Assembly: GCA_017608025.1 (NCBI GenBank)
Contig: JAFCGM010000002.1
Span: forward strand, 6,250-70,249
Direction of reading: 5' to 3'
From: Candidatus Pacearchaeota archaeon
GTDB lineage: Archaea > Nanobdellota > Nanobdellia > UBA10117 > JABICX01
Length of the DNA: 64,000 bases
Shown: positions 687 to 61,604 of the stretch, piece by piece
Numbering within the stretch: the stretch's first letter is position 1
Layout: each line of letters begins with the position of its first letter
Program-made: the position numbers and the translations under genes
Notes under the pieces: generated by a model
Seen by the model: only the letters and a program-made list of their open reading frames with translations
The model's database searches: none
Told to the model about the DNA's origin: nothing

Positions 687-1026
687 TTAGGAATACAAAC
701 AGTTTTTAGAGGAATTTGTAGTTAAAATCCTTCCAGGCTCGCTTGCCTGCAAAATCAGGCAGCACTTTAGTCGTATAGAGCTTCGCTGCATATAACTTTT
801 TTCTTTGGGCAAATTACTTTTTCTTTTTTAGAATGCGTAGCCGCCTTAGGCTCTGCCTTAATGGAGGTTCTTTTCCAAAGAAAGTCTAAAGAAAAGGCAA
901 AAGACCTTGAACTTGCTCTGCCTTTTTCAAAAAAAGGCAAGGTGCTAAAAAGCCATTTTGGAAAAAGCGCAAGCAGAAAAACAGGTTAATCTTGCTGAGC
1001 AGGAGTCTCTTCGCCAAAAGAACTAA

Positions 1027-1160
1027 TAGCCCCATCCGGATTTGAACCGGAGTCTCAGGCTTTCTTCGAAATCCTCCCAACCAGTTTAGTGGCTGGAAGA
1101 CCCTTTTTGAAAGGGATTTCCTCCAAAGGCCTGAATGATTGGCCGCTACACTATGGGGCT
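1027..1160 (-). tRNA. tRNA-Gln(TTG) with ~60-nt intron in anticodon loop
   Basis: Acceptor AGCCCCA/TGGGGCT. Anticodon stem CAGGC/GCCTG with loop CTTTGGA. T-arm TCCGG-TTCAAAT-CCGGA. Intron lies 3' of position 37. Confidence 0.65.
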
Positions 1161-21091: not shown

Positions 21092-21463
21092 TCATTTTTT
21101 GTCCTCTGTCCTTCTGTTTATTGAATCTATTTTTTCATATACAACAAATTTCTTTGTTTTGGAAATTGGCCTGCATTCTGCAATTTTAACTATATCTCCT
21201 TTTTTTGCATTGATATGTTCTGGAAGATGAGCTTTGACTTTTGAGCTTCTTTTTTCATATCTTTCATATTTTGGAATTTTAATGTGCCTTGACCACTTTA
21301 CTGTAACAGTTTTCATCATTTTGTCAGAAACAACTGTTCCTGTAAAGACTCTACCTCTCAGAGGTATGCTTATTTTTGGAGATTTATTATTTTTTTCCAA
21401 TTCATTCACCTTTTGCTTGGTTTTCTCGTGTTTTTTCATTTTTTTATTTTGAGCCGATCCCAT
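21092..21463 (-). CDS. rps17: Ribosomal protein S17 (uS17) with Lys-rich N-terminal extension
   Basis: uS17 OB-fold core. C-terminus ...NRRTEDKK. Confidence 0.85.
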
Positions 21464-21708
21464 GGTCTTTTTTCAATTTCTTCTCCATTTATTTCGACTT
21501 TTTCTTTTGATGGAAGAGTTATTTTAAGAGTTATGTTTTTTTTAAACAGTCTCTTAACTTTGTTTTTTGTTTTTATTTGAAGCGTATGATATGTTTCATT
21601 TACAATCTTGCCTTTTAATCCAAGATTGCACTTGTTTTTTGCCGCTGAAATTTCAGCATTAAGGCCAATTAGTTCGTGCCTTTGAATGTTTTGCTTTGTT
21701 ATTGGCAT
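21436..21708 (-). CDS. rnp1: RNase P protein component 1 (Rpp29/Pop4-like)
   Basis: Small Sm-like basic protein. Sits at the conserved archaeal position between SUI1/L29 and S17. Confidence 0.6.
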
Positions 21709-23606: not shown

Positions 23607-23684
23607 TGTCTTTAAAGCAAAGGACTTGCGCGGGCTCTACCGAGCAAACTCGATAGCGCGAAAGTTCCTTAGTTTTTTGCCTCC
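23607..23684 (-). repeat. Family-A variant element (A5) between S19 and L22, abutting the L22 ATG
   Basis: GGAGGcaaaaaaCTAAGGAACTTTCGCGCTATCgagtttgctcggtagagcccgcgcaagtcctttgctttaaagaca then ATG. Confidence 0.75.
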
Positions 23685-23703
23685 TTTTTAAGATATTTCA
23701 TTT

Positions 23704-24099: not shown

Positions 24100-24180
24100 T
24101 GTCCTTCTAACAAGTTCTTTGTTTGCTAGCCTCCATTATTATTTTTCTATTTATCATTTTTTTACTTGCCGCGTCCTGCT

Positions 24181-24240: not shown

Positions 24241-24251
24241 CTATCATTTTT

Positions 24252-24965
24252 TTACTTGCCGCGTCCTGATTTTTTAGCTGAAAGCATTCCAACTTTCTGT
24301 CCTGGTGAACGTCCTTTTCTTCTTACAGTTGTTGATGTAGGTCTGTGCCTTCTGTGCGTTCCACCGTGTGGGTGGTCAACTGCGTTCATTGCAACTCCTT
24401 TTACTTTTGAAACAAGCTTGTTTTTTGCTTTTCTTTTGTGGTATGAGTTTCCAGCCTTTATTAAAGGCTTGTTTTTAACTCCAACTCCTGCAACTACTCC
24501 AAGAGATGCATAGCATTCTGGATTTAGTTTTATTTGCCTTTTTGAAGGCATCTTAATTACAATATTTTTCTTTTCTTTTGCAACCAATATTCCAGAAGCT
24601 CCTGCTGCTCTCAAAAGCTTTCCATTTTGTCCTGGAACTTTTTCTATGTTGAAAACTCTTGCTCCGATAGGAATGTCTTTCAAAGCAATTGCATTTCCAA
24701 CTGAAGAGTCTTTTCCTCCATAAAAAACTGTTTGTCCAACTTTGATTCCCATTGGTGCTGGAAGCAAACACATTTGATCATCTTCATATTTTACTATCAT
24801 TAGTGGAGCTGAGTGTCCTACAGAGTTTACAATATCAATAACCTCCCCCTGAAGTATTTCTTTGGACTTAATTGGGTAACGAATTTCTCCAAAATAACGG
24901 TGGCTTGGAGACTTATATCTAGGTGAGCCTTTTCCTCTTCTTTGCGTAATAAGCCTTTTTCCCAT
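24252..24965 (-). CDS. rpl2: Ribosomal protein L2 (uL2)
   Basis: uL2 sequence with a GGTHRRHRP-type C-terminus. Start taken at MGKRLITQRRGKG. The 11 upstream codons in the ORF track are the repeat element. Confidence 0.9.
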   Translation of the reverse strand: MGKRLITQRRGKGSPRYKSPSHRYFGEIRYPIKSKEILQGEVIDIVNSVGHSAPLMIVKYEDDQMCLLPAPMGIKVGQTVFYGGKDSSVGNAIALKDIPIGARVFNIEKVPGQNGKLLRAAGASGILVAKEKKNIVIKMPSKRQIKLNPECYASLGVVAGVGVKNKPLIKAGNSYHKRKAKNKLVSKVKGVAMNAVDHPHGGTHRRHRPTSTTVRRKGRSPGQKVGMLSAKKSGRGK

Positions 24966-25074
24966 GTCCTTCTCGCGAAGGGACCCACTCAGCCGCAAAA
25001 TCGGCTGGCGCTTTCATCAGGCAGATGTTGGTCTGATGCCTGATAGCGCGAAAGTTCCTTAGTTTTTTGCCTCC
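24966..25074 (-). repeat. Family-A long element (A6, 109 bp) between L23 and L2, abutting the L2 ATG
   Basis: GGAGGcaaaaaaCTAAGGAACTTTCGCGCTATCaggcatcagaccaacatctgcctgatgaaagcgccagccgATTTTGcggctgagtGGGTCCCTTCgcgaGAAGGAC then ATG. Confidence 0.85.
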
Positions 25075-25099
25075 ATTATTTTTATCATTATTCTTCTCC

Positions 25100-27922: not shown

Positions 27923-28096
27923 TTATATACTATAATATATAAATAAATTATAATTTTTATTTAAAAAAGTTACTATTTAGGAGTAACACTGCTTTTTCTT
28001 TTGCAAAGAAAAGGTAAATCGATAAAAGAAGCAAATTATTCTTTTTTCAGAAATAGTTTTCTCTAATTTTCAGCCAGCGCTTTTTCTAAAGAAAAA

Positions 28097-28396
28097 TTAT
28101 TCGTATTCCCGCCATGTGTGCTTGCACTTTACGCATCTGAAGAAAGTTGTTTCAGGTTCATCTGAAGCGCGTGTTTGCTGGGTCCACCAAAAAGCTGTTT
28201 CATATCCGCATTTTGGGCATTCTTGTTTTGTTGTTGGAAGTGTTGCTTCTTCTTTTTCAAAAACGCCTTTTCCTTCTTGGCTTTCAGAAATTTTTTCTGT
28301 TAATTTTATGTCTCCTTTTTTGGAAAAACCGCATTCACAGACCAGTTTTCCGTTGTTAGGCACTAAAATACTCCCGCATTTTGGACAGATTTGCAT
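28097..28396 (-). CDS. tfs: Transcription factor S / RNAP subunit M (TFIIS-type zinc ribbon)
   Basis: N-terminal CPKCG...C zinc ribbon. C-terminal CPKCG...AFWWTQQTRASDEPETTFFRCVKCKHTWREY TFIIS signature. Confidence 0.85.
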   Translation of the reverse strand: MQICPKCGSILVPNNGKLVCECGFSKKGDIKLTEKISESQEGKGVFEKEEATLPTTKQECPKCGYETAFWWTQQTRASDEPETTFFRCVKCKHTWREYE

Positions 28397-28562
28397 GGTT
28401 TTCCTAAAAAGCCTATTCTAATTTAAAAGTGTTTCTATAGAAAAAAATAGAACACTAACTATAATATGTAAAAAAAGTAAGTATCACAAATTGTCAAATC
28501 CATAATTATATCTGCTACAGGATTTATTTTACTTTAAAAAGTGTTTGTATTCCCAAAGCTTT

Positions 28563-28656
28563 CTTAGAAAGAAAGCTTGCAAAGAACAACATTTTTCTTA
28601 GAAAGAAAGCTTGCAAAGAACAACATTTTTCTTAGAAAGAAAGCTTGCAAAAAATT
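28563..28656. repeat. Tandem repeat, 34-bp unit x ~2.8, each unit a palindrome (gctttctt-aga-aagaaagc)
   Basis: cttagaaagaaagcttgcaaagaacaacattttt repeated head-to-tail. Confidence 0.85.
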
Positions 28657-28661
28657 GAAAT

Positions 28662-28714
28662 TTTAGAAAAAGCGGCTAGGACTACATCTAAGGCGGCTAC
28701 GCCTTCTGCGGAAA
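28662..28714 (-). ncRNA. Candidate small RNA or conserved intergenic element, family D copy 1
   Basis: Near-identical 53-bp copy of 32318-32370: tttagaaaaagcggctaggactRcRtctaaggcggctacgccttctgcggaaa. Minus-sense would end in T5. Confidence 0.3.
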
Positions 28715-28889
28715 AATAGCTCTTTTTCTTTTCGAGAACATTTTCTTTTTCAAAAGAAAAGGTTCAAGCGAGCCCGGAGGGATTCGATTACCTCGGCAAA
28801 CCCTTTAAAAAAGTGTTTGCATTCCCAAATGTTTTTTTCGAGCGAAGCGAGACTTTTTAGCAACTTGCCTTTTTTTGAAAAAGGCAGAG

Positions 28890-29052
28890 CGAGCCCGGAG
28901 GGATTCGAACCCTCGATCTACAGCTAACTCCAGCACATTAAAGTCTTTTAGCTTATCTTTGCAGGCATCGCATTTTGTTTGCCTGCTCAAAGCGCCAGCC
29001 AATTTTGCGGCTGTAGGAGGCTGTCGCCCTATCCAGACTAGGCTACGGGCCC
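28890..29052 (-). tRNA. tRNA-Arg(CCT) with 88-nt intron at 37/38; the intron carries a family-A repeat module
   Basis: Acceptor GGGCCCG/CGGGCTC. Anticodon stem ACAGC/GCTGT with loop CTCCTA^A. T-arm GAGGG-TTCGAAT-CCCTC. Intron contains CAGCCG-CAAAAT-TGGCTG plus a long stem. Confidence 0.65.
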
Positions 29053-29585
29053 AGTTAAAGAAAACTGCAATATCTTAATAAAACTTGCCAATTCACTACC
29101 GAAATTCTTTAATCTATGTGTTTCTATAAAATTAACATGAAAAACAAACATAGATTAATTGCTTTCTTTTTAGTACTTGTTTTTGTAGTAAGCTTCTTGT
29201 TTTTTGGAAGGATTTTCAGCATAATAGATTCTCTTTCTGATTTAACAGGCGCGGAAATTCTAAAGACTCCAGAAGAAAAGTCAGAAGAATACTCATCTGT
29301 CTGCGAGCAGAAAGACTTTTCAAAAAATTATCGCGACTGTATTTACTGGGAACAGGAAGGGGAAAAACAAGATTCTCTTTCAAAGCTTTCAGACGAAGCA
29401 GTGGAATCTTTTTGCAAAGAGCTATTTAGAATTTACAAAACTTGCGAATAGAAACATTTTTAACTGATATTTTGGGTTTAACTCATATCAGATTTGCTCT
29501 GAGCTAACTTTCGACTGTTGAACAGCAGCGGGATGTCTTTGCCAGCGCTTTTCTGAAAAGAGATATGCATCATGATCTAATGCTC

Positions 29586-29678
29586 CTTCTCGTGAAGGGA
29601 GTTACATGCGGCTGCAAAATCAGCCGGCACTTTCATCAGGCAACAAAGTACGATGCCTGATTGTGATTCACGAACACA
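29586..29678 (-). repeat. Family-A structured repeat element (copy A7), directly 5' of tRNA-Gly
   Basis: tccttctcgtgaaggga...gcggctg-CAAAAT-cagccg...ttcacgaa. Flanked by a duplicated ~20-bp tRNA-Gly 5' segment (29565-29585 / 29680-29700). Confidence 0.7.
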
Positions 29679-29681
29679 TAT

Positions 29682-29753
29682 GCACCGATGATCTAATGGC
29701 TATGATTCGAGCCTTCCAAGCTCGCTGTCTGGGTTCGATTCCCAGTCGGTGCA
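29682..29753 (+). tRNA. tRNA-Gly(TCC)
   Basis: Acceptor GCACCGA/TCGGTGC+A. Anticodon stem-loop CGAGC-CTTCCAA-GCTCG. T-arm CTGGG-TTCGATT-CCCAG. T6 terminator follows. Confidence 0.85.
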
Positions 29754-30221
29754 TTTTTTGTGATTTCAAAAATCAGCAAAATTCATTAGAAAAAATTTCA
29801 TTAAAAAAGCAGTAGCGCCTGAGAAGATTTGAACAGAACCCCTTTAAAAAAGGGTCTTCCAACCCCAAAAACTGATTGAAGCTAAAAAAGCAAGATTAAA
29901 AAGTGTGATTTTGTTTTTTCTTAATCTAAAACTGAGTTCATTATCTTTTCAAGTTGTAAAATCATGACTGGGTTGAGGTCCTTCTTCAATGTATAGTCTT
30001 ATCATTTCATCTTGTGATTTTTTAATTAAATTAAAGAGTTTATTATTTTTCTCATAGATATTATTTTGTTTTAATTCTATAAACGAATGTGTTATATAAA
30101 GTTTAAAAAGTTAATTAAATTATATAAAAAAGAATCTTTTTAAAATATCTAAACAATACTTGCATTCCAAATATTGTTTTTCTTTGGGCAACTTGCACTT
30201 TCTTTTTCTAAAAGAAAGGGC

Positions 30222-30340
30222 AGCGCCTGGGGAGATTTGAACTCCCGACATCTTGCTTTCTCGTTTTTTCTGTTAATATTTTTGCGCGAAGCAGAAACGA
30301 GTTACGAGGCAAGCGCTCTACCAGACTGAGCTACAGACGC
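30222..30340 (-). tRNA. tRNA-Thr(CGT) with ~46-nt intron
   Basis: Acceptor GCGTCTG/CAGGCGC. D-arm GCTC-AGTCTGGTA-GAGC. Anticodon stem CTTGC/GCAAG with loop CTCGTAA. T-arm GGGAG-TTCAAAT-CTCCC. Confidence 0.75.
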
Positions 30341-30432
30341 AAGGTTGTATAAAAAACTTAAGCAAAATACTTTTTTTAATTGTATGGTTTTCAAAACAAA
30401 CAAATATAAGGTTTTAATTTTAGAATTTATTT

Positions 30433-30969
30433 ATGGACAATCTTCTGGATGATATATTTGAAAAAAGGGAAGAAGAGCAACGACAGGAAGCTAAAAAGTA
30501 TGTTGAACTTGTTCATCAAGCAAGAAAGGAAATTGATTTGGCAGACCATCTTTTTAATGTTACTTACAACGCAATCAAAGACTTGAAAATGCTTGCTGCA
30601 ATTGAAGACCACATAATAAAATCAAGTTTCTGTGCTTTGAACTCTCTTTTGGAGTATCTTCGCCAAAAACATAAGATTGAAGCATTTTCAACAAACAAAT
30701 CTGTAATGGTTGACTTGTTTGAGAGAAAAGTTATTGGTAAGTATAATTCTTTTGAGCTTAATGACATTCATTTTCTGAACAGACTAATTGACCTTGAGCA
30801 TTACATGAAAAACAGCACACTAAGATTCAAAAGAGGGACTTCTTATGTTCTTGCTTTGCCAGATTATTCAATAAAATCACTTAACTCAGATATTGTAAAA
30901 AACCATTTGTCTGTATCCAATGACTTTGTTTCTCGAGTAGAAAAAGAGTTAAATAATAATGAAGATTAA
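30433..30969 (+). CDS. Hypothetical protein
   Basis: 178-aa ORF with no recognised motif. Confidence 0.35.
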   Translation: MDNLLDDIFEKREEEQRQEAKKYVELVHQARKEIDLADHLFNVTYNAIKDLKMLAAIEDHIIKSSFCALNSLLEYLRQKHKIEAFSTNKSVMVDLFERKVIGKYNSFELNDIHFLNRLIDLEHYMKNSTLRFKRGTSYVLALPDYSIKSLNSDIVKNHLSVSNDFVSRVEKELNNNED

Positions 30970-30995
30970 TTGATATTAATGCTTTTGGGGTTAAA

Positions 30996-31373
30996 ATGGA
31001 TAAATTTGAAGAAATTGAAAAAAAAATATCTTTTGCAGAGTTTTTAATTGGAAGAGGTTCAAAAGAATATTCTGTTGGTGCAATAAAGCATGTTATTTCT
31101 GCTGCGCAGATTCTTGTACAGCAAATAACAAGCTTGAATGAATACGATGCAAAAAGCCCGCAAATTGCAAAATCATCTCTTAAAAAATTCAAAGAAGATG
31201 AAATAAAAGATTTTTCTAAATTCTACCAGAAACTTCTTACAAAAGAAGAAAAATCTCATATTACTCCTCAAGAAGTTGAAGAAGACATACAGAAACTTAA
31301 GAAATTTACTGAGATAGCTAAAAGAATGAAAGGAAATAATGAAAAAAGGCACAATTTTTTTCGGGAAGTTTAA
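30996..31373 (+). CDS. Hypothetical protein
   Basis: 125-aa, alpha-helical, K/E-rich. Co-oriented with the 30433 ORF. Confidence 0.35.
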   Translation: MDKFEEIEKKISFAEFLIGRGSKEYSVGAIKHVISAAQILVQQITSLNEYDAKSPQIAKSSLKKFKEDEIKDFSKFYQKLLTKEEKSHITPQEVEEDIQKLKKFTEIAKRMKGNNEKRHNFFREV

Positions 31374-32096
31374 TTATCCTACGTAGCTCAAATCTTTACT
31401 CTTTTTTGCAAGGTCTTTTTTTCCTCTAAGTCCTTCTTTTAAAATCGCCTTGATTTTTGTTTCTGTTTCTTCTGCTTTTTTCAAAAGAGGCCGTACATCA
31501 ATTTTTAAAGCTAAATAGTTGTTCAGAACTTTTACAATTTCTGCTGCTGCTCTGCTGTCTGGAAGCTTTGATGTTGTTTCTGCAAAGATGTAAGTTAAGG
31601 GCAGTTTTTTTGGAGCTCTTAGCATTAAAGAACCTGTAACTCCTAAAACAGCGCCTTCCTTAAGTTCAGAGTAACCTAATTTTTTCAGCTTTTTCTCAAT
31701 TGCTTCTTTGTTTGAGTGGTAGAATGGGCTGCTGATTTTTTTCTTTGTAAATGGAGCATTAACTCCTTCTATACTTATTACTTCTTTTGCCTTTACTTTT
31801 TTTGAAAATTGAATAATTGTATCTGCAATTTTCCATTCTAAACCATTAACATCTGTAATTGCGTGAAGCAAAATAAGATTGTTTTTATTGTCATAAAAAA
31901 TTTCAAAAGGTCTTCTTAATTCTCCCTTGTGAATTGTAGCAATTGGAGCAAGCTTATCTGAAACAATTTTTCCAATTGGCTTTGCTTTCAAATTTTCAAT
32001 AAGATATTCCATAGCTATTGTGCTAACATATCCAAGACCAGGAAAACCTTCAATTATAATTGGATTTTTTGGAATTTTTTCAAGAGAAACTTCCAT
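31374..32096 (-). CDS. PAC2-family protein (proteasome-assembly-chaperone-like)
   Basis: IIIEGFPGLGYVSTIAMEYL N-terminal signature of the PAC2/COG1938 family. Start taken at MEVSLE. Confidence 0.5.
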   Translation of the reverse strand: MEVSLEKIPKNPIIIEGFPGLGYVSTIAMEYLIENLKAKPIGKIVSDKLAPIATIHKGELRRPFEIFYDNKNNLILLHAITDVNGLEWKIADTIIQFSKKVKAKEVISIEGVNAPFTKKKISSPFYHSNKEAIEKKLKKLGYSELKEGAVLGVTGSLMLRAPKKLPLTYIFAETTSKLPDSRAAAEIVKVLNNYLALKIDVRPLLKKAEETETKIKAILKEGLRGKKDLAKKSKDLSYVG

Positions 32097-32206
32097 TGTA
32101 TTATAAAAATATATATAATGGTTTATATAATTTGTTGAAAAAATTTCTAAAAGTTTCATCAAAAATAAAAGGAAATATTTATAAATCGCATATTTTACTT
32201 AGATTT

Positions 32207-32316
32207 TAGCGGTCATAGCCCAGGGGTTCACCTGTTCCCATTTCGAACACAGAAGTTAAGCCCTGGTACGTTCCCGGTTGTACTGCATTTATGTGGGAAT
32301 CCGGGAAAGCTGCTAC
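32207..32316 (+). rRNA. rrf: 5S rRNA (stand-alone, not linked to 16S/23S in this window)
   Basis: GCGGTCATAGCCCAGGGGTTCACCTGTTCCCATTTCGAACACAGAAGTTAAGCCC... with terminal helix I pairing, followed by T6. Confidence 0.8.
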
Positions 32317-32317
32317 T

Positions 32318-32370
32318 TTTTTAGAAAAAGCGGCTAGGACTGCGTCTAAGGCGGCTACGCCTTCTGCGGA
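32318..32370 (-). ncRNA. Candidate small RNA or conserved element, family D copy 2
   Basis: Second copy of the family-D 53-mer, directly after the 5S terminator. Followed by the palindrome gaaacttttggaaaaagtttc also found at the tRNA-Leu 5' flank. Confidence 0.3.
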
Positions 32371-32459
32371 AACTTTTGGAAAAAGTTTCATCAAAAACAG
32401 AATCATATTTTTACATTATCTCTTTTCCATATTGATTTTAGTTAAGATTCTTTAGTGCA

Positions 32460-32540
32460 GTCCTTTTAGCTAAGAGACCCACGCTGGCGACAAACATTGG
32501 TTATGAAAAGTCGCATAAGCTCTTAAATTATTTCTTTTTC
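32460..32540 (-). repeat. Degenerate family-A element flanked by diverged ~30-bp direct repeats
   Basis: gtccttttagctaagagacccacgctggcg... between attgattttagttaagattctttagtgca and atgttaattttaactaagactctttggtgca. Confidence 0.5.
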
Positions 32541-32645
32541 ATGTTAATTTTAACTAAGACTCTTTGGTGCATTTTTTGAATAAATGCTTTTTTGTCATCC
32601 ATTTCAGAAGCTTCATAATAAAACAAAAATAAAAATTAAATTTGT

Positions 32646-32990
32646 TTGATACGGGTTCAAAAACTTTATATTAAATTACAGAAAAGGAAAAAAATGGATA
32701 TTAACACTTTCGGATATGCAGCAGTTATGTATTTTTCCGAAGACCAAGAAAATGTTTTTTTTGAAACATCAAAAGGTTATTTAATAAGCCAGGAAAATTC
32801 TCTTTCATCAAGACTTTTGAGGCAGAGCCTGTTGAAGCCAAAATCAAAGCAAGTAAAATTTGAATTTAATGGGAGCACTATTAAGATTTATATTGATTCT
32901 GGTTTTGGAAATCCAAAAGAAATTATTTTTCGAGATGTAAGTAGGGATCACAAAATGGATGAAGGTTCCTTATTTATGCGCGCAGCATAA
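32646..32990 (+). CDS. Hypothetical protein (probable start at MDINTF, nt 32694)
   Basis: No recognised motif. Confidence 0.3.
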   Translation: MIRVQKLYIKLQKRKKMDINTFGYAAVMYFSEDQENVFFETSKGYLISQENSLSSRLLRQSLLKPKSKQVKFEFNGSTIKIYIDSGFGNPKEIIFRDVSRDHKMDEGSLFMRAA

Positions 32991-34303
32991 TGGAAGATTT
33001 AGTTATAAAAAACGCAAAGATTTTAACTATGAATAAAAATTCTGATATTCTGAATAATTCGTGGATTTCTGTTAAAGGAAATTTAATTTCTGGAATTGGA
33101 AACATGGAAGCACCAAAAGCAAAAAAAATGATTGACTGTAATGGCAAACTTGTTATGCCAGGATTAATCAATGTTCATACTCATGCTTCTATGAACTTGC
33201 TGAGAGGAGTTGCAGATGACTTGCCTCTGCAAGAGTGGCTTTTTAATCATATTTTTCCAATTGAAAACAAATTCATTAACAAAGAGTTTGTTTATTGGGG
33301 GACTAAGCTAGCAATTGCAGAAATGCTTTTGTCAGGAACAACAACTTTTGTTGATATGTATTTTGAAAAAAACGAAGCTGCAAGAGCATGTGAAGATTCT
33401 GGAATTCGAGGGATTATTTCCTGGGCAGCACTTAATTTGCCAACAAAAGAAAATCCAGACAAAATAGCAAAAAAAAGTGAGGACTTCATAAATAAATGGA
33501 AAAAAAGTTCTCTTGTTATTCCTGCTGTTGGACCTCATTCAGTTTACACCTGCTCTGAAAAACTTCTCAAAAAAATGAAAGAAGTTTCAGACAAGCATAG
33601 TTGCATTTACCACATTCATGTCTCAGAAACTGAGAAAGAGAACAAAGAACATTTTAAGAAACATAAAAAATCACCAATCAAATATCTAAATGATTTGAAT
33701 ATTTTGTCTGAAAAAACTCTTGCTGCTCATTGTGTTCATCTTGACAAAAAAGATATTGAAATTATAAAAAACAAAAATGTTCGAGTTGCATATAATCCAG
33801 AAAGCAATGCAAAACTTGCTTCAGGCATTGCACCAGTAAGAGTACTGCTAGAAAATGGAGTTACAGTTGGAATTGGAACTGACGGAGTTGCAAGCAACAA
33901 CAACCTCAATCTGTTTGAGGAAATGAAATTTGCAAGCTTAATTCAAAAAGCCAATGAAATGGATGCAACAGTTTTACCTGCAAAAAAAATTGTGGAAATG
34001 GCTACAATTGACGGAGCAAAATGCCTTGGTCTGGAAAAAGAGATTGGCTCTATTGAAAAAGGAAAAAAAGCTGACTTAATTGTTTTAGATACAAAAAAAC
34101 CACATATGTTTCCAGAGTATAACACTTATTCAAATATAGTTTATTCTGCAAACGGAAGTGAAGTTGAAATAGTAATTGTTAATGGAAAAGTCCTTGTTGA
34201 AAATCAGAAGATAATTTCTTTTGATTTAAATGAAGTTATGAAGAAATGCAGAGATATTGTTGAAAAAATAAGAAAATTCAAAGAAGCTTCAAGTCAGAAA
34301 TAA
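32990..34303 (+). CDS. Amidohydrolase-family deaminase (MTA/SAH deaminase MtaD-like, COG0402)
   Basis: Metal-binding HTH at the start of GLINVHTHASM, internal HIHVSE, and a C-terminal GTDG-type aspartate motif. Confidence 0.7.
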   Translation: MEDLVIKNAKILTMNKNSDILNNSWISVKGNLISGIGNMEAPKAKKMIDCNGKLVMPGLINVHTHASMNLLRGVADDLPLQEWLFNHIFPIENKFINKEFVYWGTKLAIAEMLLSGTTTFVDMYFEKNEAARACEDSGIRGIISWAALNLPTKENPDKIAKKSEDFINKWKKSSLVIPAVGPHSVYTCSEKLLKKMKEVSDKHSCIYHIHVSETEKENKEHFKKHKKSPIKYLNDLNILSEKTLAAHCVHLDKKDIEIIKNKNVRVAYNPESNAKLASGIAPVRVLLENGVTVGIGTDGVASNNNLNLFEEMKFASLIQKANEMDATVLPAKKIVEMATIDGAKCLGLEKEIGSIEKGKKADLIVLDTKKPHMFPEYNTYSNIVYSANGSEVEIVIVNGKVLVENQKIISFDLNEVMKKCRDIVEKIRKFKEASSQK

Positions 34304-35894: not shown

Positions 35895-36842
35895 TTATTT
35901 TTTCAGCATTTTCTTTTTTCTTATTCTTCTATAAATGAAGAATCCTGTTACTGCAATTACTGCAAACAAAAAATATATTCCATATGGCGCTGGTTTTTGG
36001 GCTAAACCATATTTGTATAGGTCTTTCTGAGAATACACGCGAATATCTATTGTCTGCTCATCCATGTAACTTCTACTGTTTGCATCAGTATATTCAAGTG
36101 TAAATGGAAGAGTTATTATTTTAGTTTCAGGATTTTTTGAATCTGATTTAAAATAAATGTCAAAAACTGCAGTTTCAAAATCATCTGACTCAAGTTCGCC
36201 AACATAAACTTCGTGCGGTGAAAGAACAATGTATTCATCTGTTTCATCAAGTGTTATTGTCAGGTATTTTGTATTTAGTGAGCCTTTATTTACAATGTTT
36301 GTTGTAATTCTTGATTTCTTGTTAAATGATACAGAATCCAAATCTTCAATTCCCACATCAACCCTTGGCTCTCCACCAGTTTTCACTGTTATTGTCACAG
36401 ATGTTTTTTTCATTTCTTTTTCACATTCGCTGTCGCTACATGAAATAAATTCAAGAGAATAATCTCCTGCTTTTGTGTTCTCATTTACAAAAAGCCTGTA
36501 ATCAAGAAGCTTATTCGAATTTGTTCCGATGATTCCTGTGCTTTTTATTGAATCTTCTCCCGGAACAAGGGAAAACGGATATTCTGGATTTACTTTTATG
36601 TATGCATTATCCAATTGCTCATTTCCAATATTCTGGACAGATATCCAAACGCGCAGAGTGTTGTCTGGCTCAGCAGGAACTGGGTCGTAGTCCTTAAGCA
36701 CAACCTTAACATCTGCATTTTCAGCTACAAGGGCCATTGCCGCAAACGGAACTATTACTAAAATTGTAAAAAGTGCGAAAAGCACTTTAATTGCTTTTTT
36801 CATTTTCAACTCTCCCATCTTTAAGATAAAACACTTTCTCAT
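35895..36842 (-). CDS. Exported protein with C-terminal membrane anchor (ABC-transporter-associated)
   Basis: Signal-like N-terminus, beta-rich body, C-terminal TM helix plus RRIRKKK. Co-transcribed with the permease and ATPase. Confidence 0.4.
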   Translation of the reverse strand: MRKCFILKMGELKMKKAIKVLFALFTILVIVPFAAMALVAENADVKVVLKDYDPVPAEPDNTLRVWISVQNIGNEQLDNAYIKVNPEYPFSLVPGEDSIKSTGIIGTNSNKLLDYRLFVNENTKAGDYSLEFISCSDSECEKEMKKTSVTITVKTGGEPRVDVGIEDLDSVSFNKKSRITTNIVNKGSLNTKYLTITLDETDEYIVLSPHEVYVGELESDDFETAVFDIYFKSDSKNPETKIITLPFTLEYTDANSRSYMDEQTIDIRVYSQKDLYKYGLAQKPAPYGIYFLFAVIAVTGFFIYRRIRKKKMLKK

Positions 36843-39009
36843 CTCGAGCTAATTTTTCGAAACGAGAATCGTGAGTTACGATTATTAATGTCTTATTTTT
36901 GTTTTTCCACAAATCAATTAAAATCTTCACAATCTTTTTTCCTGTTTTTGAATCAAGATTTCCTGTTGGCTCATCAGCAAGAATTATTTCTGGATCGTTT
37001 GCAAGAGAGCGGGCAATTGCAACTCTTTGTTGCTCTCCGCCAGACATTTCAGAAGGAAGATGATTTTTTCTGTGCTCAAGGCCAACTATATCCAAAAGCT
37101 CTGATGCTCTTTTAATTCGCTCTTCTTTAGATATATTCTGAAAGACCATTGTAAGAGCAACATTTTCAATTGCAGTAAGGCTTTGAATCAAGTTGAATTT
37201 CTGAAATACAAATCCTATTTTGCTTCCACGAATTTGTGCAAGCTCTGACTCTTCAAGAGAGGAAATGTCTTTTCCATTAAGATATATTTTGCCTTTTGTT
37301 GGAACATCAAGGCATCCAATCATGTTCATTGCTGTAGAATTATGAACAATAAACTCATTTGCTATAAAATTATCTGCACCAGGAACAGTTATGTCATAAA
37401 CTGTTGTCTTTTTATTTATTTTTTTGACTGCAATAACCTTATCCCAAAAAATATCTGAGTCGATTAACGCAGAAAGTTTATCTGTATTGATTTTGTTTTC
37501 TGAAAGAAGATTATTAATCAATTTTAATTTATTCACTGAAGGATTAATTCTTTTAGACTCATATGGATTAAGAACTTTATGAATTCTTCTTGATACTTTT
37601 ACTTTAGACTCTCTTCTAACTTTCTGTAATAATTCTCCACAAGGAATTACATCTACATTCGTATTCTCTTTGTTTTTTAAGTGGCTAAGAAGCCTTTTTT
37701 TCTTATCTGATGAAATAAAGCCAATGTGCTTCTCATACAATTTAAGATTGTTCAATCCAGAAATAGATAATAAATAATAAAATCTATTTGTTTTTTTATT
37801 AAATTTTTTGGGGAGTCTAGAAACAATTCCATACCTCAGAAGCAAATAATTTAATTGAGTGATAAGGTCTTTGCTTGCAAGAGTTATTGCTACTTCTTTT
37901 TTGTTTTTTGAAACATAACCATCACAATCAAACAATGCCCTAATAAAAGCAGCAATTTCTTTGTTAGAACATCTAAAAACAAATTCCGGCAGTTTTATTT
38001 TTCTTGATTTAAGATTTAGAGGAAAATTAAATATTTTATTGAAAAAAATAAGTAAGACCTTATTATTAACAGCTAATCTTGTATCCATAAATTTTTTTGC
38101 ATCAACTTCAAAAATTCGATTTACTAAATAAGAAAATCTCTCATTTATTTTTGGGTCTAAATTTGTAAATTTTATTCCATCCTTATCTAAATTTCCATCT
38201 CCTGCAATAAAGCCATATAGCTCCATTAAATCTTTAGAAATCTTTTTCGGCATTCTTACTTTATTGTGCGAACCTGCAGGAGTTATATAAAAATTACACT
38301 TATATTCAGAAATATCTGTACCACAGTAATCCATAATTTTCTTAAAATTCTCCAATGAAATATTATTATTATGTTTCCAAGCATCATAACTAAAGTAATT
38401 AAATTTCAGTTTCTTGCATAATTCCTTTCCAGAAATCTTTGAATTTTTGAGAAGTTTTCGGATTAATTTGCTTGAATCAAAGAGATATAATCTTTTGTTT
38501 GCACTTGCAAGTTTTAGCAAATCAATTTCTTGTTTTTTTGGTTTTGTATTTATTTTTCTTGCTGTGGCAACAAAAATTCCTTTTTTAAGATTTGTTGCGC
38601 GAATTTCACTGAAGCCATTAGAATCTAAAGTGAAAAAGGGATGTTCTGGAGTACTTACTATTTTTTTGCCTGAAGAAGTTGTAATTTCATAAATCTGATT
38701 CGCTTCTCGTTTATAAAAATCAGAGACTCTGAAAGGTTTAATTTTATTGGATTTTCTATCTAATGCAAGAACTTTATATTTCTTATATTTTCTTTCAAAA
38801 TCTTTTAGATTTATTAAAGAGCCATCTTCCAAAAACAATTTAGTGTCTCCAGTAAGGCATTTTCCACTGCCTGATGGGCCCATTATAACAACAAAATCTC
38901 CTTGATTTACTTTAAGGCTTAGGCCTCGGAGTGCTGGAACTTCCACTGCACCCATTTTATAAATCTTCCAAGCATCTTTGATTTTAATAAGTGTTTTTGA
39001 GGAAGTCAT
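36787..39009 (-). CDS. ABC transporter ATP-binding protein (MacB/LolD-type) interrupted by a 507-aa intein
   Basis: Extein N-part ends GPSGSGK, then intein CLTGDTK...IVHN, then extein resumes [16 protein letters not shown]-like SGGEQQR, Walker B ILADEPT and H-loop all present. Confidence 0.85.
37339..38859 (-). other. Intein with LAGLIDADG homing-endonuclease domain, inserted in the Walker A P-loop (GSGK^ST)
   Basis: Block A Cys1 (CLTGDTKL), LAGLIDADG pair [11 protein letters not shown] / [12 protein letters not shown], terminal HN followed by +1 Ser. Confidence 0.8.
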
Positions 39010-41950: not shown

Positions 41951-42937
41951 TTAAAACGCCTGTTTATAGTCAGGAGCGTCTCTTGGCGAAAAATCAATCT
42001 CAATATCAAAAGAAAAAATAGCTTTCACCAAAATACAAATATTATAAACCAAACATTTCAAATACAATTCATTTACTTGAGATTCAAAGTTCTTAAAATA
42101 TAATTTAGCACCAAACTTACGCTTTAATGCACTGAAGCTTGCTTCTACATTAGACCTTTTGTGATAGTGCTTATAGAATTTACTTCTATTCTTACGGAAC
42201 AGTTCCAATGAAGTTTTCCAAACACCGCTTTTTCTCTTCATTCCACAATTACTTCTGAAAGGAATATATGGAACGCCACCATAATGATGAACCGTCTCTA
42301 AATTATGCCTAGAAGAATATGCTTTATCTCCTAATACTTCATCAATCTTGAAATTCTCAGCAGTTCTTGAAACTAACTTATCAAATTCAGGAGAATCATG
42401 ACATTCACCTGTAGTAATTTCAAGAGAAGTAATTACATTCGTAAAAATCCCACACATTGCATGACATTTAACAAATTTATGCCTGTCATTATATCCGACT
42501 CTTGAATCAAACCATCTCTCATAACTATTAGTTGAGAATCCAGTCGAATCAACTGCAAACCTAGTCTCCAAGTATTTCAAAGGCATAGCAGACATCATAA
42601 GTAAATAATTCAATGTTGGGGTCAAAGATTTTCTTCTCATGTAGTCCGTAACAGAAGAATGATGTGGGACTTTTTTAATATATCCCATATCTTTGAGAAA
42701 CCATAATTGAGATGTAAGTGTTCTTGAAGGCATCCCAAAATATAACTTCATAGCTAGGCAGAAGATTACATCCTTTTGATTGTGCATTGGACGACCTTTT
42801 TTCTTTATTGGTTCCGATACAGTTTCATCCAATAGATTTCTGAGGATTTCAACAAAGAGTCTACCTTCCTTAGTTTGCGCTTTATTGTAGGAAGTCCAGT
42901 CTCTATCTTTTGTGAATTCTTTAATTTTTGATTGCAT
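41951..42937 (-). mobile_element. IS5/IS4-superfamily DDE transposase gene (IS ends not resolved)
   Basis: DDE_Tnp_1-like blocks FAVDSTGF, LGDKAYSS, EASFSALKRKFG. Confidence 0.7.
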
Positions 42938-56119: not shown

Positions 56120-56193
56120 TGTCCTTCTAGTGACGGGACCCACGCTGGCTTTACTGAACAAGCTTGATAGCGCGAAAGTTCCTTATGTCCTCC
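56120..56193 (-). repeat. Family-A element (copy A8), forming the thrS 5' leader
   Basis: Minus-sense: GGAGGacataaggaacTTTCGCGCTATCaagcttgttcagtaaagccagcGTGGGTCCCgtcactaGAAGGACA then ATG. A TTTATA box abuts its 5' end at 56194-56200. Confidence 0.75.
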
Positions 56194-56364
56194 TATAAAT
56201 TGTTTAGAAATACGGCTATTTAAATTATTCTCCGTTGCCCTCAATAAAATTAATGGGCGACAAAAGCGCCAGCTGATTTCGCGGCTGTGTGGGGCACTCA
56301 CCGTTAATAGCCATAAAATTCTTTATTGAAGAAGATTTAAAAGGTTTGTTGTAAAAAGCAGATT

Positions 56365-60149: not shown

Positions 60150-61604
60150 TTAACCTTTTACAACAACAAAAGGAATTAATCGAGCTACTTTTTTCGCAAT
60201 TCCTGTTTCATGCATAACTTTTATTACTTCCTCAACATCCTTGTACGCTTGCGGTGCTTCCTCAAGCAGTCCTTTTTTGTCGTGGCTGAGTACAATTATG
60301 TTTTTGGATTTCAACTCTGCTGTTAATGACTGGGAGTTTATTTTTCTTTTTGCTGCGTTGCGAGAGAGAATGCGGCCAGCTCCGTGGCATGCTGAGCCAA
60401 ATGTTTCATCCATTGCTTTTTGAGTTCCCTTAAGAATGTAAGAAGCAGTTCCCATTGTTCCTCCAATTAAAACAGGTTGTCCGATTTCTCTGTATTTTTC
60501 TGGAATTTCAGTTCTGCCCGGTCCAAAAGCGCGAGTTGAGCCTTTTCGATGGACAAGAATTTTTTTGGTTTTTCCATTTATAGTGTGCTCTTCAATTTTG
60601 GCAGTGTTGTGCGCAACTTCATAAAGAGTTTTTATTTTTTCAGGCTTTAAATTGAAAGCTTGTGCAAGAGTTTTGCGTGCAAGATGAGCAATAACCTGCC
60701 GGTTTGCAAATGCGCAATTTATTCCGGCCTTAACTGCAGAGAAATACTTTTTCCCTTCTGGAGAATTTATTGGAGCACAAACCAACTCCTTGTCTGGAAT
60801 TTTGATTTTGTATTTTCTAACTGCTTTTGCAAGGTCTTTTGTGTAATCCATTCCAATTTGATGCCCCAGGGCTCGGGAGCCGCAGTGAAAAGAAATTAGC
60901 ACCTGATTTTCCTTAATTCCATAGGCTTGTGCTGCTTTTTTATCAAAAATTTTATCAACCACTTGCAGTTCAATATAGTGATTTCCAGAACCAAGAGTTC
61001 CTGTTTGGGAAAACTGGCGCTGCTTTGCTCGCTGGGAAACTGCTTTTGGGTCTGCTCCTGAGATTTTGCCGTTTTCCTCAATAAATTCAAGGTCTTGTTT
61101 TATTCCATAACCTTTTTTTATTGCAAATTCAGCACCTTCAACAAGAAGATTATCAATTTCATTTAAAGAAAGCTTAATTTTTCCTCCAACACCCAAGCCT
61201 GCAGGAATATTGTCATAAAGCAGTTTGGCAATTTCCTTTTCTCGGCCATTAAAATCAGATTTTTTAAGAGGTGTTGCCATTGTGCGAACGCCGCAATTTA
61301 TGTCAAAACCAATGCCACCCATTACAATTACGCCTTTTTCCAAGTCAAATGCTGCTACTCCGCCAATTGGAAATCCATAACCCACATGAATATCTGGATT
61401 TGCAATTACTGGCTTTTCAACTCCAGGCAGTTTTGCTATGTTCTTTAATTGCTGAAGAGAGTTCCATTCTGAATTTTCACTATTTAGCAAGCTCTTGATT
61501 TTCCTGCTAGCGTAAATCCTAGCTGGAACTGCCATTTTCTCTTCCTGGAACTCCCAGACATGTTTTCTTATTTGTTTCATCTTTCCACATCTTTGGTTTT
61601 TCAT
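60150..61604 (-). CDS. rtcB: RNA-splicing ligase RtcB (tRNA ligase)
   Basis: GYGFPIGGVAAFD, DINCGVR, HCGSRALGH, HNTAK and GTM motifs. Confidence 0.9.
   Translation of the reverse strand: MKNQRCGKMKQIRKHVWEFQEEKMAVPARIYASRKIKSLLNSENSEWNSLQQLKNIAKLPGVEKPVIANPDIHVGYGFPIGGVAAFDLEKGVIVMGGIGFDINCGVRTMATPLKKSDFNGREKEIAKLLYDNIPAGLGVGGKIKLSLNEIDNLLVEGAEFAIKKGYGIKQDLEFIEENGKISGADPKAVSQRAKQRQFSQTGTLGSGNHYIELQVVDKIFDKKAAQAYGIKENQVLISFHCGSRALGHQIGMDYTKDLAKAVRKYKIKIPDKELVCAPINSPEGKKYFSAVKAGINCAFANRQVIAHLARKTLAQAFNLKPEKIKTLYEVAHNTAKIEEHTINGKTKKILVHRKGSTRAFGPGRTEIPEKYREIGQPVLIGGTMGTASYILKGTQKAMDETFGSACHGAGRILSRNAAKRKINSQSLTAELKSKNIIVLSHDKKGLLEEAPQAYKDVEEVIKVMHETGIAKKVARLIPFVVVKG

Follow-up and report, generated by a model that had tools for sequence, protein, structure and literature searches.

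A 94-nt structured element between two copies of a tRNA-Gly start in a Candidatus Pacearchaeota genome, and its relatives in archaeal tRNA introns and between long direct repeats

The 64,000-nucleotide stretch of DNA analysed here (the window) comes from a Candidatus Pacearchaeota archaeon (assembly GCA_017608025.1, contig JAFCGM010000002.1). It carries a gene for the transfer RNA (tRNA) tRNA-Gly(UCC), preceded by a structured element of 94 nt and, upstream of that, by a second, imperfect copy of the tRNA-Gly start. The coordinates of these and other features are collected in Table 1. The mature tRNA-Gly is complete, uninterrupted and 72 nt long, and begins 4 nt past the end of the element; the program ARAGORN placed it at 29681-29754 with anticodon TCC. 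The upstream copy of the repeat (X-left) reads ATATGCA-TC-ATGATCTAATG-C and the downstream copy (X-right) reads ATATGCA-CCG-ATGATCTAATG-GC, at a separation of 115 nt. Aligned as ATATGCA[T]C-ATGATCTAATG against ATATGCA[C]CGATGATCTAATG, the two share a 7-mer and an 11-mer, with one substitution and one 1-nt gap in 21 columns, and a second 1-nt gap (G19) falls in X-left just ahead of the last shared C. Written as a single-copy string, the target of the proposed insertion is ATATGCACCGATGATCTAATGGC. A sequence-only reading of this DNA had already described an element in the 5' part of tRNA-Gly flanked by a duplication of about 20 bp. Its coordinates stand to within 1-2 nt, as does the placement of the element between the copies, but the upstream copy starts 2 nt earlier and ends at 29583 rather than 29584, the element has 94 nt rather than 93, and the tRNA starts 4 nt after it rather than 3.

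The simplest alternative is that the upstream segment resembles the tRNA start by chance, as might happen in AT-rich sequence; the window has 33% G+C and short repeats are frequent there. We aligned the 250 nt upstream locally against tRNA-Gly positions -4 to +21 and obtained a score of 30. This score was matched by none of 20,000 shuffles of the upstream 250 nt and was not reached by any of 1,015 other 250-nt window segments from both strands, of which the best scored 22. The repeat also borders a recognised member of a repeat family exactly, as described below. A chance match therefore has next to no probability, and the similarity that the sequence-only reading had left open to refutation by proper alignment holds. 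Compared with tRNA-Gly, X-left has one substitution (C-to-U) and two 1-nt deletions, and at most 5 of the 7 acceptor pairs can form. Its acceptor strand is cut to 6 nt, which makes it unusable as a tRNA 5' end. Judged by its sequence, X-left is a decaying relic, copied from tRNA-Gly nt 1-19 together with the 4 nt of 5' flank before them.

The element at this locus (the Gly copy) fills the interval between X-left and X-right exactly. Its predicted fold, with hairpins A, B and C, has a free energy of -33.9 kcal/mol (z = -4.45), and none of 200 shuffles was equally stable. Two further copies in the window established its kinship. The copy beside rpl2 is identical at 62 of 74 positions, with homology running from the first base after X-left, and the copy that forms the intron of tRNA-Arg(CCU) is identical at 40 of 49. 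The family is marked by a covarying hairpin, CRGCYG-CRAAAU-CRGCYG, after which come GCRCUUU and a second hairpin. With R1, a covariance model of the core built from 56 sequences, we found in the Gly copy the core ACR-GCYGC-RAAAU-YRGCYG-GCRCUUU with a 6-bp covarying stem. A second, variable hairpin comes straight after GCRCUUU, in a layout common to about 50 members. Several other identities for the Gly copy were tried and rejected. An upstream ATGATCT and the CTGA at 29657-29660 resemble the boxes of a C/D-box small RNA, but these boxes are not kept in other copies. A hammerhead ribozyme on the minus strand (CUGAUGA...GAAA) would have misplaced helices and has no Rfam match, and a kink-turn at GCRC-UUU-GA would lack GA on the partner strand. 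In a miniature CRISPR array, the repeated part would not be the flanks, as it is here where the conserved part is single. A template and variable repeat pair of a diversity-generating retroelement was dismissed because the repeat differences are not adenine-specific (locus L007; loci outside the window carry L numbers).

In the window R1 recognised five copies and no more, with scores of 40-48 bits, and no further match exceeded 10 bits; relatives also came up in BLAST and in a pattern search. The copy in the rpl23-rpl2 spacer lies antisense to the operon, with its 5' end adjoining the rpl2 start codon (complement CAT, 24963-24965). This spacer measures 134 nt in the window, compared with 9, 1, 1 and 1 nt in four relatives (L132, L134, L136 and L137). 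The 9-nt spacer belongs to the closest relative, GCA_964558255.1, whose L2 protein is 80% identical, and the three relatives with 1-nt spacers are 68-70% identical. Read from these spacers, the empty site in four relatives is direct evidence that this sister copy was inserted. Another copy, with its core at 740-772, lies about 255 nt from the 3' end of the tRNA-Gln gene. Three sites upstream of rpl22, rpl2 and thrS, and a shortened version upstream of rps19, share a GGAGGC motif (Table 1), whose placement puts a Shine-Dalgarno-like GGAGG 40-100 nt from the start codon. The motif may be the far end of the long-form element.

Table 1. Features of the window (positions counted from its first nucleotide; R1, covariance model of the family core).
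Feature	Position	Strand	Details
X-left, putative relic upstream copy of target	29563-29583	+	ATATGCATCATGATCTAATGC; alignment to tRNA start
Gly copy, element probably inserted	29584-29677	+	94 nt; R1 46.0 bits, E 3e-15; homology to rpl2-side copy
Hairpin A of Gly copy	29585-29598	+	CCTTC-TCGT-GAAGG
Family core in Gly copy	29605-29637	+	covariance model R1
Hairpin B of Gly copy	29609-29626	+	CGGCTG-CAAAAT-CAGCCG, then GCACTTT
Hairpin C of Gly copy	29635-29661	+	ATCAGGCA...TGCCTGAT; in minimum-free-energy and centroid folds
Copy-specific tail of Gly copy	29662-29677	+	last 16 nt
X-right, intact downstream copy of target	29678-29700	+	ATAT + tRNA-Gly nt 1-19
tRNA-Gly(UCC)	29682-29753	+	Rfam RF00005 61.1 bits, full-length match; no intron
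rpl23-rpl2 spacer copy, long form	24966-25062, core 24986-25018	+	hairpins A, B, C; R1 47.9 bits
tRNA-Arg(CCU) intron copy	28926-29014, core 28985-29017	-	R1 46.0 bits
Core of further copy	740-772	+	hairpin B variant GCCTG/CAGGC; R1 40.2 bits
Core of further copy upstream of thrS	56259-56291	-	R1 43.9 bits
GGAGGC-AAAAAAC-TAAGGAACTTTCGCGCTATC motif (messenger RNA sense)	23653-23690, 25041-25075, 56160-56195		upstream of rpl22, rpl2, thrS
Shortened GGAGGC motif	24110-24150		upstream of rps19
tRNA-Arg(CCU) gene	28890-29052	-	intron ~89 nt
tRNA-Thr(CGU) gene	30222-30340	-	intron ~47 nt
tRNA-Gln(UUG) gene	1027-1160	-	intron ~62 nt
26-bp direct repeat	24152-24177, 24242-24267	-	perfect; AGGACGCGGCAAGTAAAAAAATGATA; last codons and stop of rpl2
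20-bp repeat of tRNA-Arg 3' end	28768-28787, 28889-28908		perfect; encloses ~101-bp insert
Other repeat family (TTGCATTCC/GCCTTTTTCAAAAAAAGGC), further copies	630-712, 30151-30215		630-712 as reverse complement
Copy of tRNA-Thr 3' end	29796-29834 (vs 30204-30242)		diverged; ~370 bp from gene
34-nt repeats, three in tandem	28560-28661		TTTCTTAGAAAGAAAGCTTGCAAAGAACAACATT
54-nt sequence, two copies	28661-28714, 32319-32372		96% identity, 3.6 kb apart
5S rRNA gene	32205-32318		directly upstream of the 32319-32372 copy
RNase P p29	21436-21708		
ABC-type ATPase with intein	36787-39009	-	LAGLIDADG endonuclease domain
Transposase, DDE_Tnp_1	41951-42937	-	328 aa, IS4/IS5-type
tRNA-splicing ligase RtcB	60150-61604	-	

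Copies of the same element were found far beyond this genome. We searched the GTDB, taking one genome for each species, with the core pattern GCYGCRAAATYRGCYGGCRCTTT, for which we estimate about one chance match. The scan gave 60 loci, 52 of them labelled archaeal, and several genomes held 3-7 copies. The archaeal hosts belong to Iainarchaeota, Woesearchaeota, Nanoarchaeota, Nanohaloarchaea, Undinarchaeota, Altiarchaeales, Thermoplasmata and Methanosarcinales. JGI and ENA metagenomes added 69 further loci, and IMG/VR viral contigs gave no match to the core. In public archaeal metagenome-assembled genomes (MAGs) the core has about 100 occurrences. Among contigs labelled bacterial, four loci (L018, L046, L104 and L105) had lower R1 scores and look like chance or unrelated matches. 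The stem positions of the core pattern were left free to mismatch, and covariation was counted on 56 members. Stem cells of hairpin B were 99.4% paired, with 49 cells changed on both sides; none of 500 shuffles reached this pairing level, and slid registers collapse. Most double-sided changes are accounted for by four interchangeable versions of the stem, CAGCCG/CGGCUG, CGGCUG/CAGCCG, CAGCUG/CAGCUG and CGGCCG/CGGCCG. Since pairing was kept although the stem positions were free, hairpin B is conserved as a structure with a conserved loop. Rfam 15, run on the whole window, gave no significant match over the five copies at the gathering threshold; at E<=10 within 28000-33000 the sole overlapping match was to isrK, in the Gly copy and at chance level (E 8.4), and on 16 related loci Rfam offered no family for the element. 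No description of the element was found in the searchable literature, literal sequence strings included, a scope from which most subscription journals fell out. Provisionally, we regard the family as undescribed so far. One contig that nominally belongs to a Proteobacteria MAG, Ga0070741_10000047 (427 kb, 71% G+C), carries two high-scoring copies, L011/L096 and L014/L129, with flanking repeats of 43 and 73 bp; Pfam scans of neighbouring open reading frames (ORFs) at L129 gave nothing diagnostic of its domain.

Flanking duplication is a property of the family and not of the Gly copy alone. For each copy, 200 nt to the left were aligned with 320 nt to the right, and a duplication was counted where a direct repeat scored at least 34 and its left member ended within 12 nt of the core. 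Such repeats flank 31 of 94 distinct copies, compared with 2 of 395 control positions in the same loci, that is, a third of family members against a control rate of 0.5%. The duplications measure 17-134 bp, where 17 bp is the detection floor, and they are unrelated in sequence between loci. Many are perfect, among them those at L028 (29 bp), L015/L090 (20 bp), L054 (23 bp) and L102 (39 bp). The commonest gap between the end of the left repeat and the core was 2 nt, which means that the element begins at the C of CR-GCYGC. In the Gly copy, likewise, the target repeat abuts the 5' end and recurs after the tail.

These results bear on two other histories of the tRNA-Gly locus. Slippage could have made a tandem duplication of the tRNA 5' region, with the element arriving between the copies later and by chance. 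Short tandem duplications are common, and arrays at L118 and L013 show unequal recombination at such loci. However, the element fills the interval exactly, its homology to the rpl2 copy runs from the first base after the upstream repeat, and the same arrangement recurs in family members at a rate far from that of control positions, so that we consider two independent events exceedingly improbable. The second history is that of an integrative plasmid or virus that recombined at an attachment (att) site in tRNA-Gly, left attL and attR repeats, and was shrunk to 94 bp by deletion. The length range of att cores takes in about 21-23 bp, the length of the present repeat. Integration of a recombinase-encoding element into an archaeal tRNA gene, leaving a 5' fragment, is documented (Sugahara et al. 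2012, PMC3293823). Against this, more than 30 different sites have the same element of about 60-100 nt between duplicated targets of unrelated sequence, and these sites include the starts of protein genes, the 3' ends of tRNAs and intergenic DNA. No integrase gene or remnant was found between the tRNA-Gly repeats, where all 94 nt are homologous to the non-coding family, and the core was not found among the IMG/VR viral contigs. Perfect repeats around equally small copies (L053, L028, L015 and L054) show that the small form itself inserts, and such recent insertions of the short element were seen at many different targets, a finding that speaks against an att-site origin. We regard that origin as very unlikely.

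The duplicated repeats very often include the terminus of a tRNA or protein gene, and exact analogues of the tRNA-Gly arrangement occur in other archaea. Where the 5' part of a tRNA is duplicated, the repeat spans from nt -1 to -4 up to nt +16 to +21. In the Altiarchaeales loci L053/L087/L089, a perfect 20-bp repeat (AAGGGCTCGTGGGGTAGCTC, twice) covers tRNA positions -3 to +17, and L063 has a perfect repeat of 21 bp. The Woesearchaeota locus L013 holds three copies of a tRNA 5' part with two successive element copies between them. At L004/L125 (17 bp) and L081 (19 bp) the element lies antisense between the copies. The other end of the tRNA is affected at L025, L093 and L118, where the part from T-loop to 3' end plus trailer is duplicated. 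In Thermoplasmata (L007, L017, L050 and L055) a protein gene has its first 13-20 codons within the repeat. From the old start codon a short ORF runs through the element, and in three of the four loci it stops at ATGA or GTGA overlapping the restored start, with GGAGG in the element tail. This overlap, in L007, L017 and L055, looks like translational coupling; the readthrough peptide of the same three loci is, in the same frame, (S/G)RKIG(W/R)RF. Although the lengths vary, the duplication has its upstream edge 0-4 nt from the tRNA 5' end or start codon in at least 10 of about 18 readable cases. This regularity could reflect selection for spacing to signals in the tail, such as the TATA-like box of L013 and the GGAGG of Thermoplasmata, or alternatively integration tied to transcription starts. 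A TATA-like box stands at the expected distance in L013; L053/L063, L004 and the Gly locus have none there. At L031 (= L107; 1290-1430, minus strand), L013 and L118, element and target form tandem arrays. Two L031 units share 75 identical nt (hairpin C plus target) and have seven differences with compensatory changes in hairpin B, which suggests either an exchange of hairpin B only or a second insertion in which a part of the first element was duplicated.

Other members of the family are tRNA introns. The nearest is in tRNA-Arg(CCU), whose match to the Rfam tRNA model is broken after the anticodon by a 90-nt insertion. In the predicted fold of its precursor, the anticodon stem is followed by a 4-bp helix (CUCC/GGAG) and a 3-nt UUA bulge on the 3' side, while on the 5' side hairpin B follows at once after U36-A37. 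Hairpin B opens with a C that is also the first nucleotide of the intron, and most duplication-flanked copies begin at this same C. As we read the predicted fold, its geometry is like that of a bulge-helix-bulge (BHB) junction, in which hairpin B would take the place of the intron-side helix. Copies also occur as introns at position 37/38 (for example L005, L008, L009, L012, L040 and L042), in the D-loop (L021) and in the T-loop (L026, L033 and L045). Because the intron copies are all sense-oriented, lie inside tRNA genes and have no flanking repeats, they must be spliced. Of the six tRNA genes in the window, three have long introns. ARAGORN failed to call these three, Arg(CCU), Thr(CGU) and Gln(UUG); tRNA-Gln was also absent from the whole-window Rfam run and was recovered at 45.3 bits by a focused search.

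On another reading the upstream copy is functional. The region would be a split or alternative precursor with the upstream segment as its true 5' exon, from which the element plus downstream nt 1-19 is removed as a D-loop intron; or else the element would form a leader on which the splicing endonuclease acts. Family members do act as tRNA introns, in the neighbouring tRNA-Arg(CCU) and in the D-loop of L021; the Gly copy is sense-oriented, and RtcB is encoded in the window. Yet the upstream copy has lost one acceptor nucleotide and G19, carries the C-to-U change and cannot complete its acceptor stem, whereas the downstream tRNA-Gly is complete at 72 nt and 61 bits. No BHB or relaxed variant joining both junctions was found in the fold of 29555-29760, and hairpin A, not B, abuts the junction. 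The Gly copy lies outside the mature tRNA, 4 nt upstream of +1, and so is not placed as an archaeal BHB intron. We consider a functional upstream copy highly improbable.

Long duplications in this genome also surround inserts of other kinds. Among the genes of the window are a ribosomal-protein operon of archaeal kind, RNase P p29, RtcB and an archaeal-type threonyl-tRNA synthetase, and the nearest named homologues of its L2 protein are in Woesearchaeota and Nanoarchaeia MAGs, which marks the host as a DPANN archaeon. The rpl2-rps19 spacer measures 152 nt, compared with 2-12 nt in relatives, and in it a 26-bp repeat of the rpl2 end encloses a 64-nt hairpin insert unrelated to the hairpin-B family. 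At the tRNA-Arg 3' end, a 20-bp repeat encloses an insert from another repeat family (TTGCATTCC... plus an GCCTTTTTCAAAAAAAGGC hairpin), which is present at two further places. These two inserts indicate that long duplications are not peculiar to one element sequence in the host genome. Together with a copy of the tRNA-Thr 3' end, they also bear out the earlier remark that duplicated gene termini recur at other insertions in the window. Three tandem 34-nt repeats lie at 28560-28661, and the sequence directly downstream of the 5S rRNA gene is repeated at 28661-28714. An intein with a LAGLIDADG endonuclease domain sits in an ABC-type ATPase gene.

We conclude, with a probability of roughly 0.8, that an element was inserted at tRNA-Gly with duplication of its target. 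The claim in the sequence-only reading of such an insertion with a duplication of about 20 bp is supported by family membership, by the family-wide duplications, by the tRNA analogues and by the empty sites at rpl2, and the evidence supports the view that segment 29584-29677 is a copy of a non-autonomous, structured mobile element widespread in archaea. The element would have integrated at the D-loop-coding position of tRNA-Gly(UCC), duplicating 23 bp of target (4 nt of flank plus nt 1-19). Since the D-loop lies about 20 nt from the tRNA 5' end, the duplication would have rebuilt a complete gene downstream. The downstream target copy would have stayed joined to the gene body, leaving an intact tRNA-Gly. 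The three repeat differences and the ~84% identity to the rpl2-side copy suggest an old event. The transcript probably runs through relic and element, and RNase P would cut at +1 and remove the leader, so that the insertion would cost nothing; the p29 subunit is encoded in the window.

Several observations weigh against this conclusion. Terminal inverted repeats were not found in the element, and its 3' end is poorly defined. The Gly copy has a 25-nt 5' extension (hairpin A plus linker) before hairpin B and, unlike short-form copies, does not begin at the splice-site nucleotide. The tails of duplication-flanked copies were unmatched to the 3' parts of the intron copies compared. Neither copy of the tRNA start has a recognisable TATA box about 25 nt ahead of it, and transcription therefore probably begins further upstream. 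No transposase, integrase or reverse transcriptase linked to the element was found. The only transposase in the window, DDE_Tnp_1, has no visible link to the element, and recognisable inverted ends or a target duplication were not found near its ORF. Finally, the search for a relative with an empty tRNA-Gly site gave none: the upstream ORF had no homologues, an exact 40-mer of the tRNA-Gly was not found in the metagenome collection, and the contig of the closest relative (L061) stops short of the locus.

A single scheme could cover both forms of the family. Sense-oriented in a tRNA loop, the element would be removed as an intron, with its first hairpin beside the 5' splice site. Near a gene terminus, a duplication of 17-134 bp would recreate the terminus, and would itself arise by fill-in after two widely separated nicks, one on each strand. 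We have a weak preference for a route in which a nick primes copying of the element RNA, or of an excised-intron-like single strand, in the manner of retroposition. It is favoured by the precise end at the splice-site nucleotide together with the variable tails and duplication lengths like those of target-primed events; the long-form copies of this genome, the Gly copy included, count against it because they start upstream of hairpin B, as does the failure to find a reverse transcriptase. A DNA transposition system with widely spaced nicks is a serious, if less favoured, candidate. It is rather unlikely that the event took place at a replication fork, where a hairpin-protected primer or flap would escape FEN1 and be ligated. 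A transposase with fixed stagger is at odds with the range of duplication lengths, and site-specific recombination with the many unrelated targets. The most far-reaching proposal would be that a previously undescribed element, as an excised-intron-like RNA or single strand, is copied into nicked DNA by a process akin to retroposition or to a replication flap, yields new introns in tRNA loops, where its first hairpin provides the intron-side helix, and recreated gene ends within ~20-130 bp of its landing site, and is thereby the agent long sought for non-canonical tRNA intron gain in archaea and the first prokaryotic element resembling short interspersed nuclear elements (SINEs). We consider this proposal, taken as a whole, doubtful.

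The hairpin-B family makes it testable how archaeal tRNAs gained introns at many positions. It presents three states of one sequence: introns in all three tRNA loops, fresh insertions between perfect duplications, and an insertion whose empty site is seen in relatives. The family may thus show how archaeal tRNA introns spread. It also bears on how very compact DPANN genomes tolerate mobile DNA, in that the interrupted gene end is restored by a long duplication, and the tail of the element seems in some cases to supply a TATA box or a Shine-Dalgarno sequence. In practice, elements of this type disrupt tRNA and gene prediction. The hairpin-B element is apparently an uncatalogued, widely distributed archaeal element that occurs both as an intron and as an insertion with long duplication.

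Among known systems, elements of the IS1202 and IS1634 type and casposons share with the family target duplications far longer than the usual 2-9 bp. Casposon duplications are 14-15 bp, those of the IS1202 group about 24-29 bp, and IS1634 is an exception to the narrow classes. These elements are autonomous and have inverted termini, whereas the hairpin-B element has no such gene or terminus and its duplications extend over 17-134 bp. MITEs (miniature inverted-repeat transposable elements), Correia elements and Rickettsia palindromic elements are likewise small, structured, non-coding, multicopy and tolerated in transcription units. Such small repeats sometimes bring expression signals, as do the L013 tails with a TATA-like box and the Thermoplasmata tails with GGAGG. 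MITEs, however, have terminal inverted repeats and a short duplication whose fixed length their transposase determines, in contrast to the one defined end, the absence of inverted termini and the long variable duplications seen here. The pattern is also that of target-primed retroposition by eukaryotic SINEs and long interspersed nuclear elements (LINEs), with long variable duplications, one precise and one variable end, either orientation and a non-autonomous, structured, RNA-like element. The likeness is one of pattern only; the hairpin-B family has yielded no reverse transcriptase partner, no A-tail and no internal promoter. To our knowledge, nothing of the SINE/LINE kind has been established in archaea.

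Two archaeal cases come closest. In Caldiarchaeum, a 1.8-kb element encoding a recombinase disrupts tRNA-Thr and has left behind a 5' fragment (Sugahara et al. 2012, PMC3293823). As in that case and in integrations of the SSV and pNOB8 type, the tRNA-Gly locus has a partial 5' copy upstream of an intact gene with foreign DNA between; unlike the Caldiarchaeum element, with its size, recombinase and fixed target, the present one has 94 nt and no gene, and its family has many targets and variable duplications. In tRNA genes of Thermoproteales, introns with strongly similar sequences occur in different genes at positions both canonical and non-canonical (Fujishima et al. 2010, summarised in PMC4090602), and the mechanism of their transposition is stated to be unknown (PMC4090602). 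Like these transposed BHB introns, the hairpin-B family has members in many tRNAs, be it at 37/38 or in the D- or T-loop. It differs in its hosts, which are DPANN archaea, Thermoplasmata, Altiarchaeales and Methanosarcinales, and, unlike what is described in the reports we found on Thermoproteales introns, it also occurs outside tRNAs, in both orientations, beside protein genes and between duplications of 17-134 bp.

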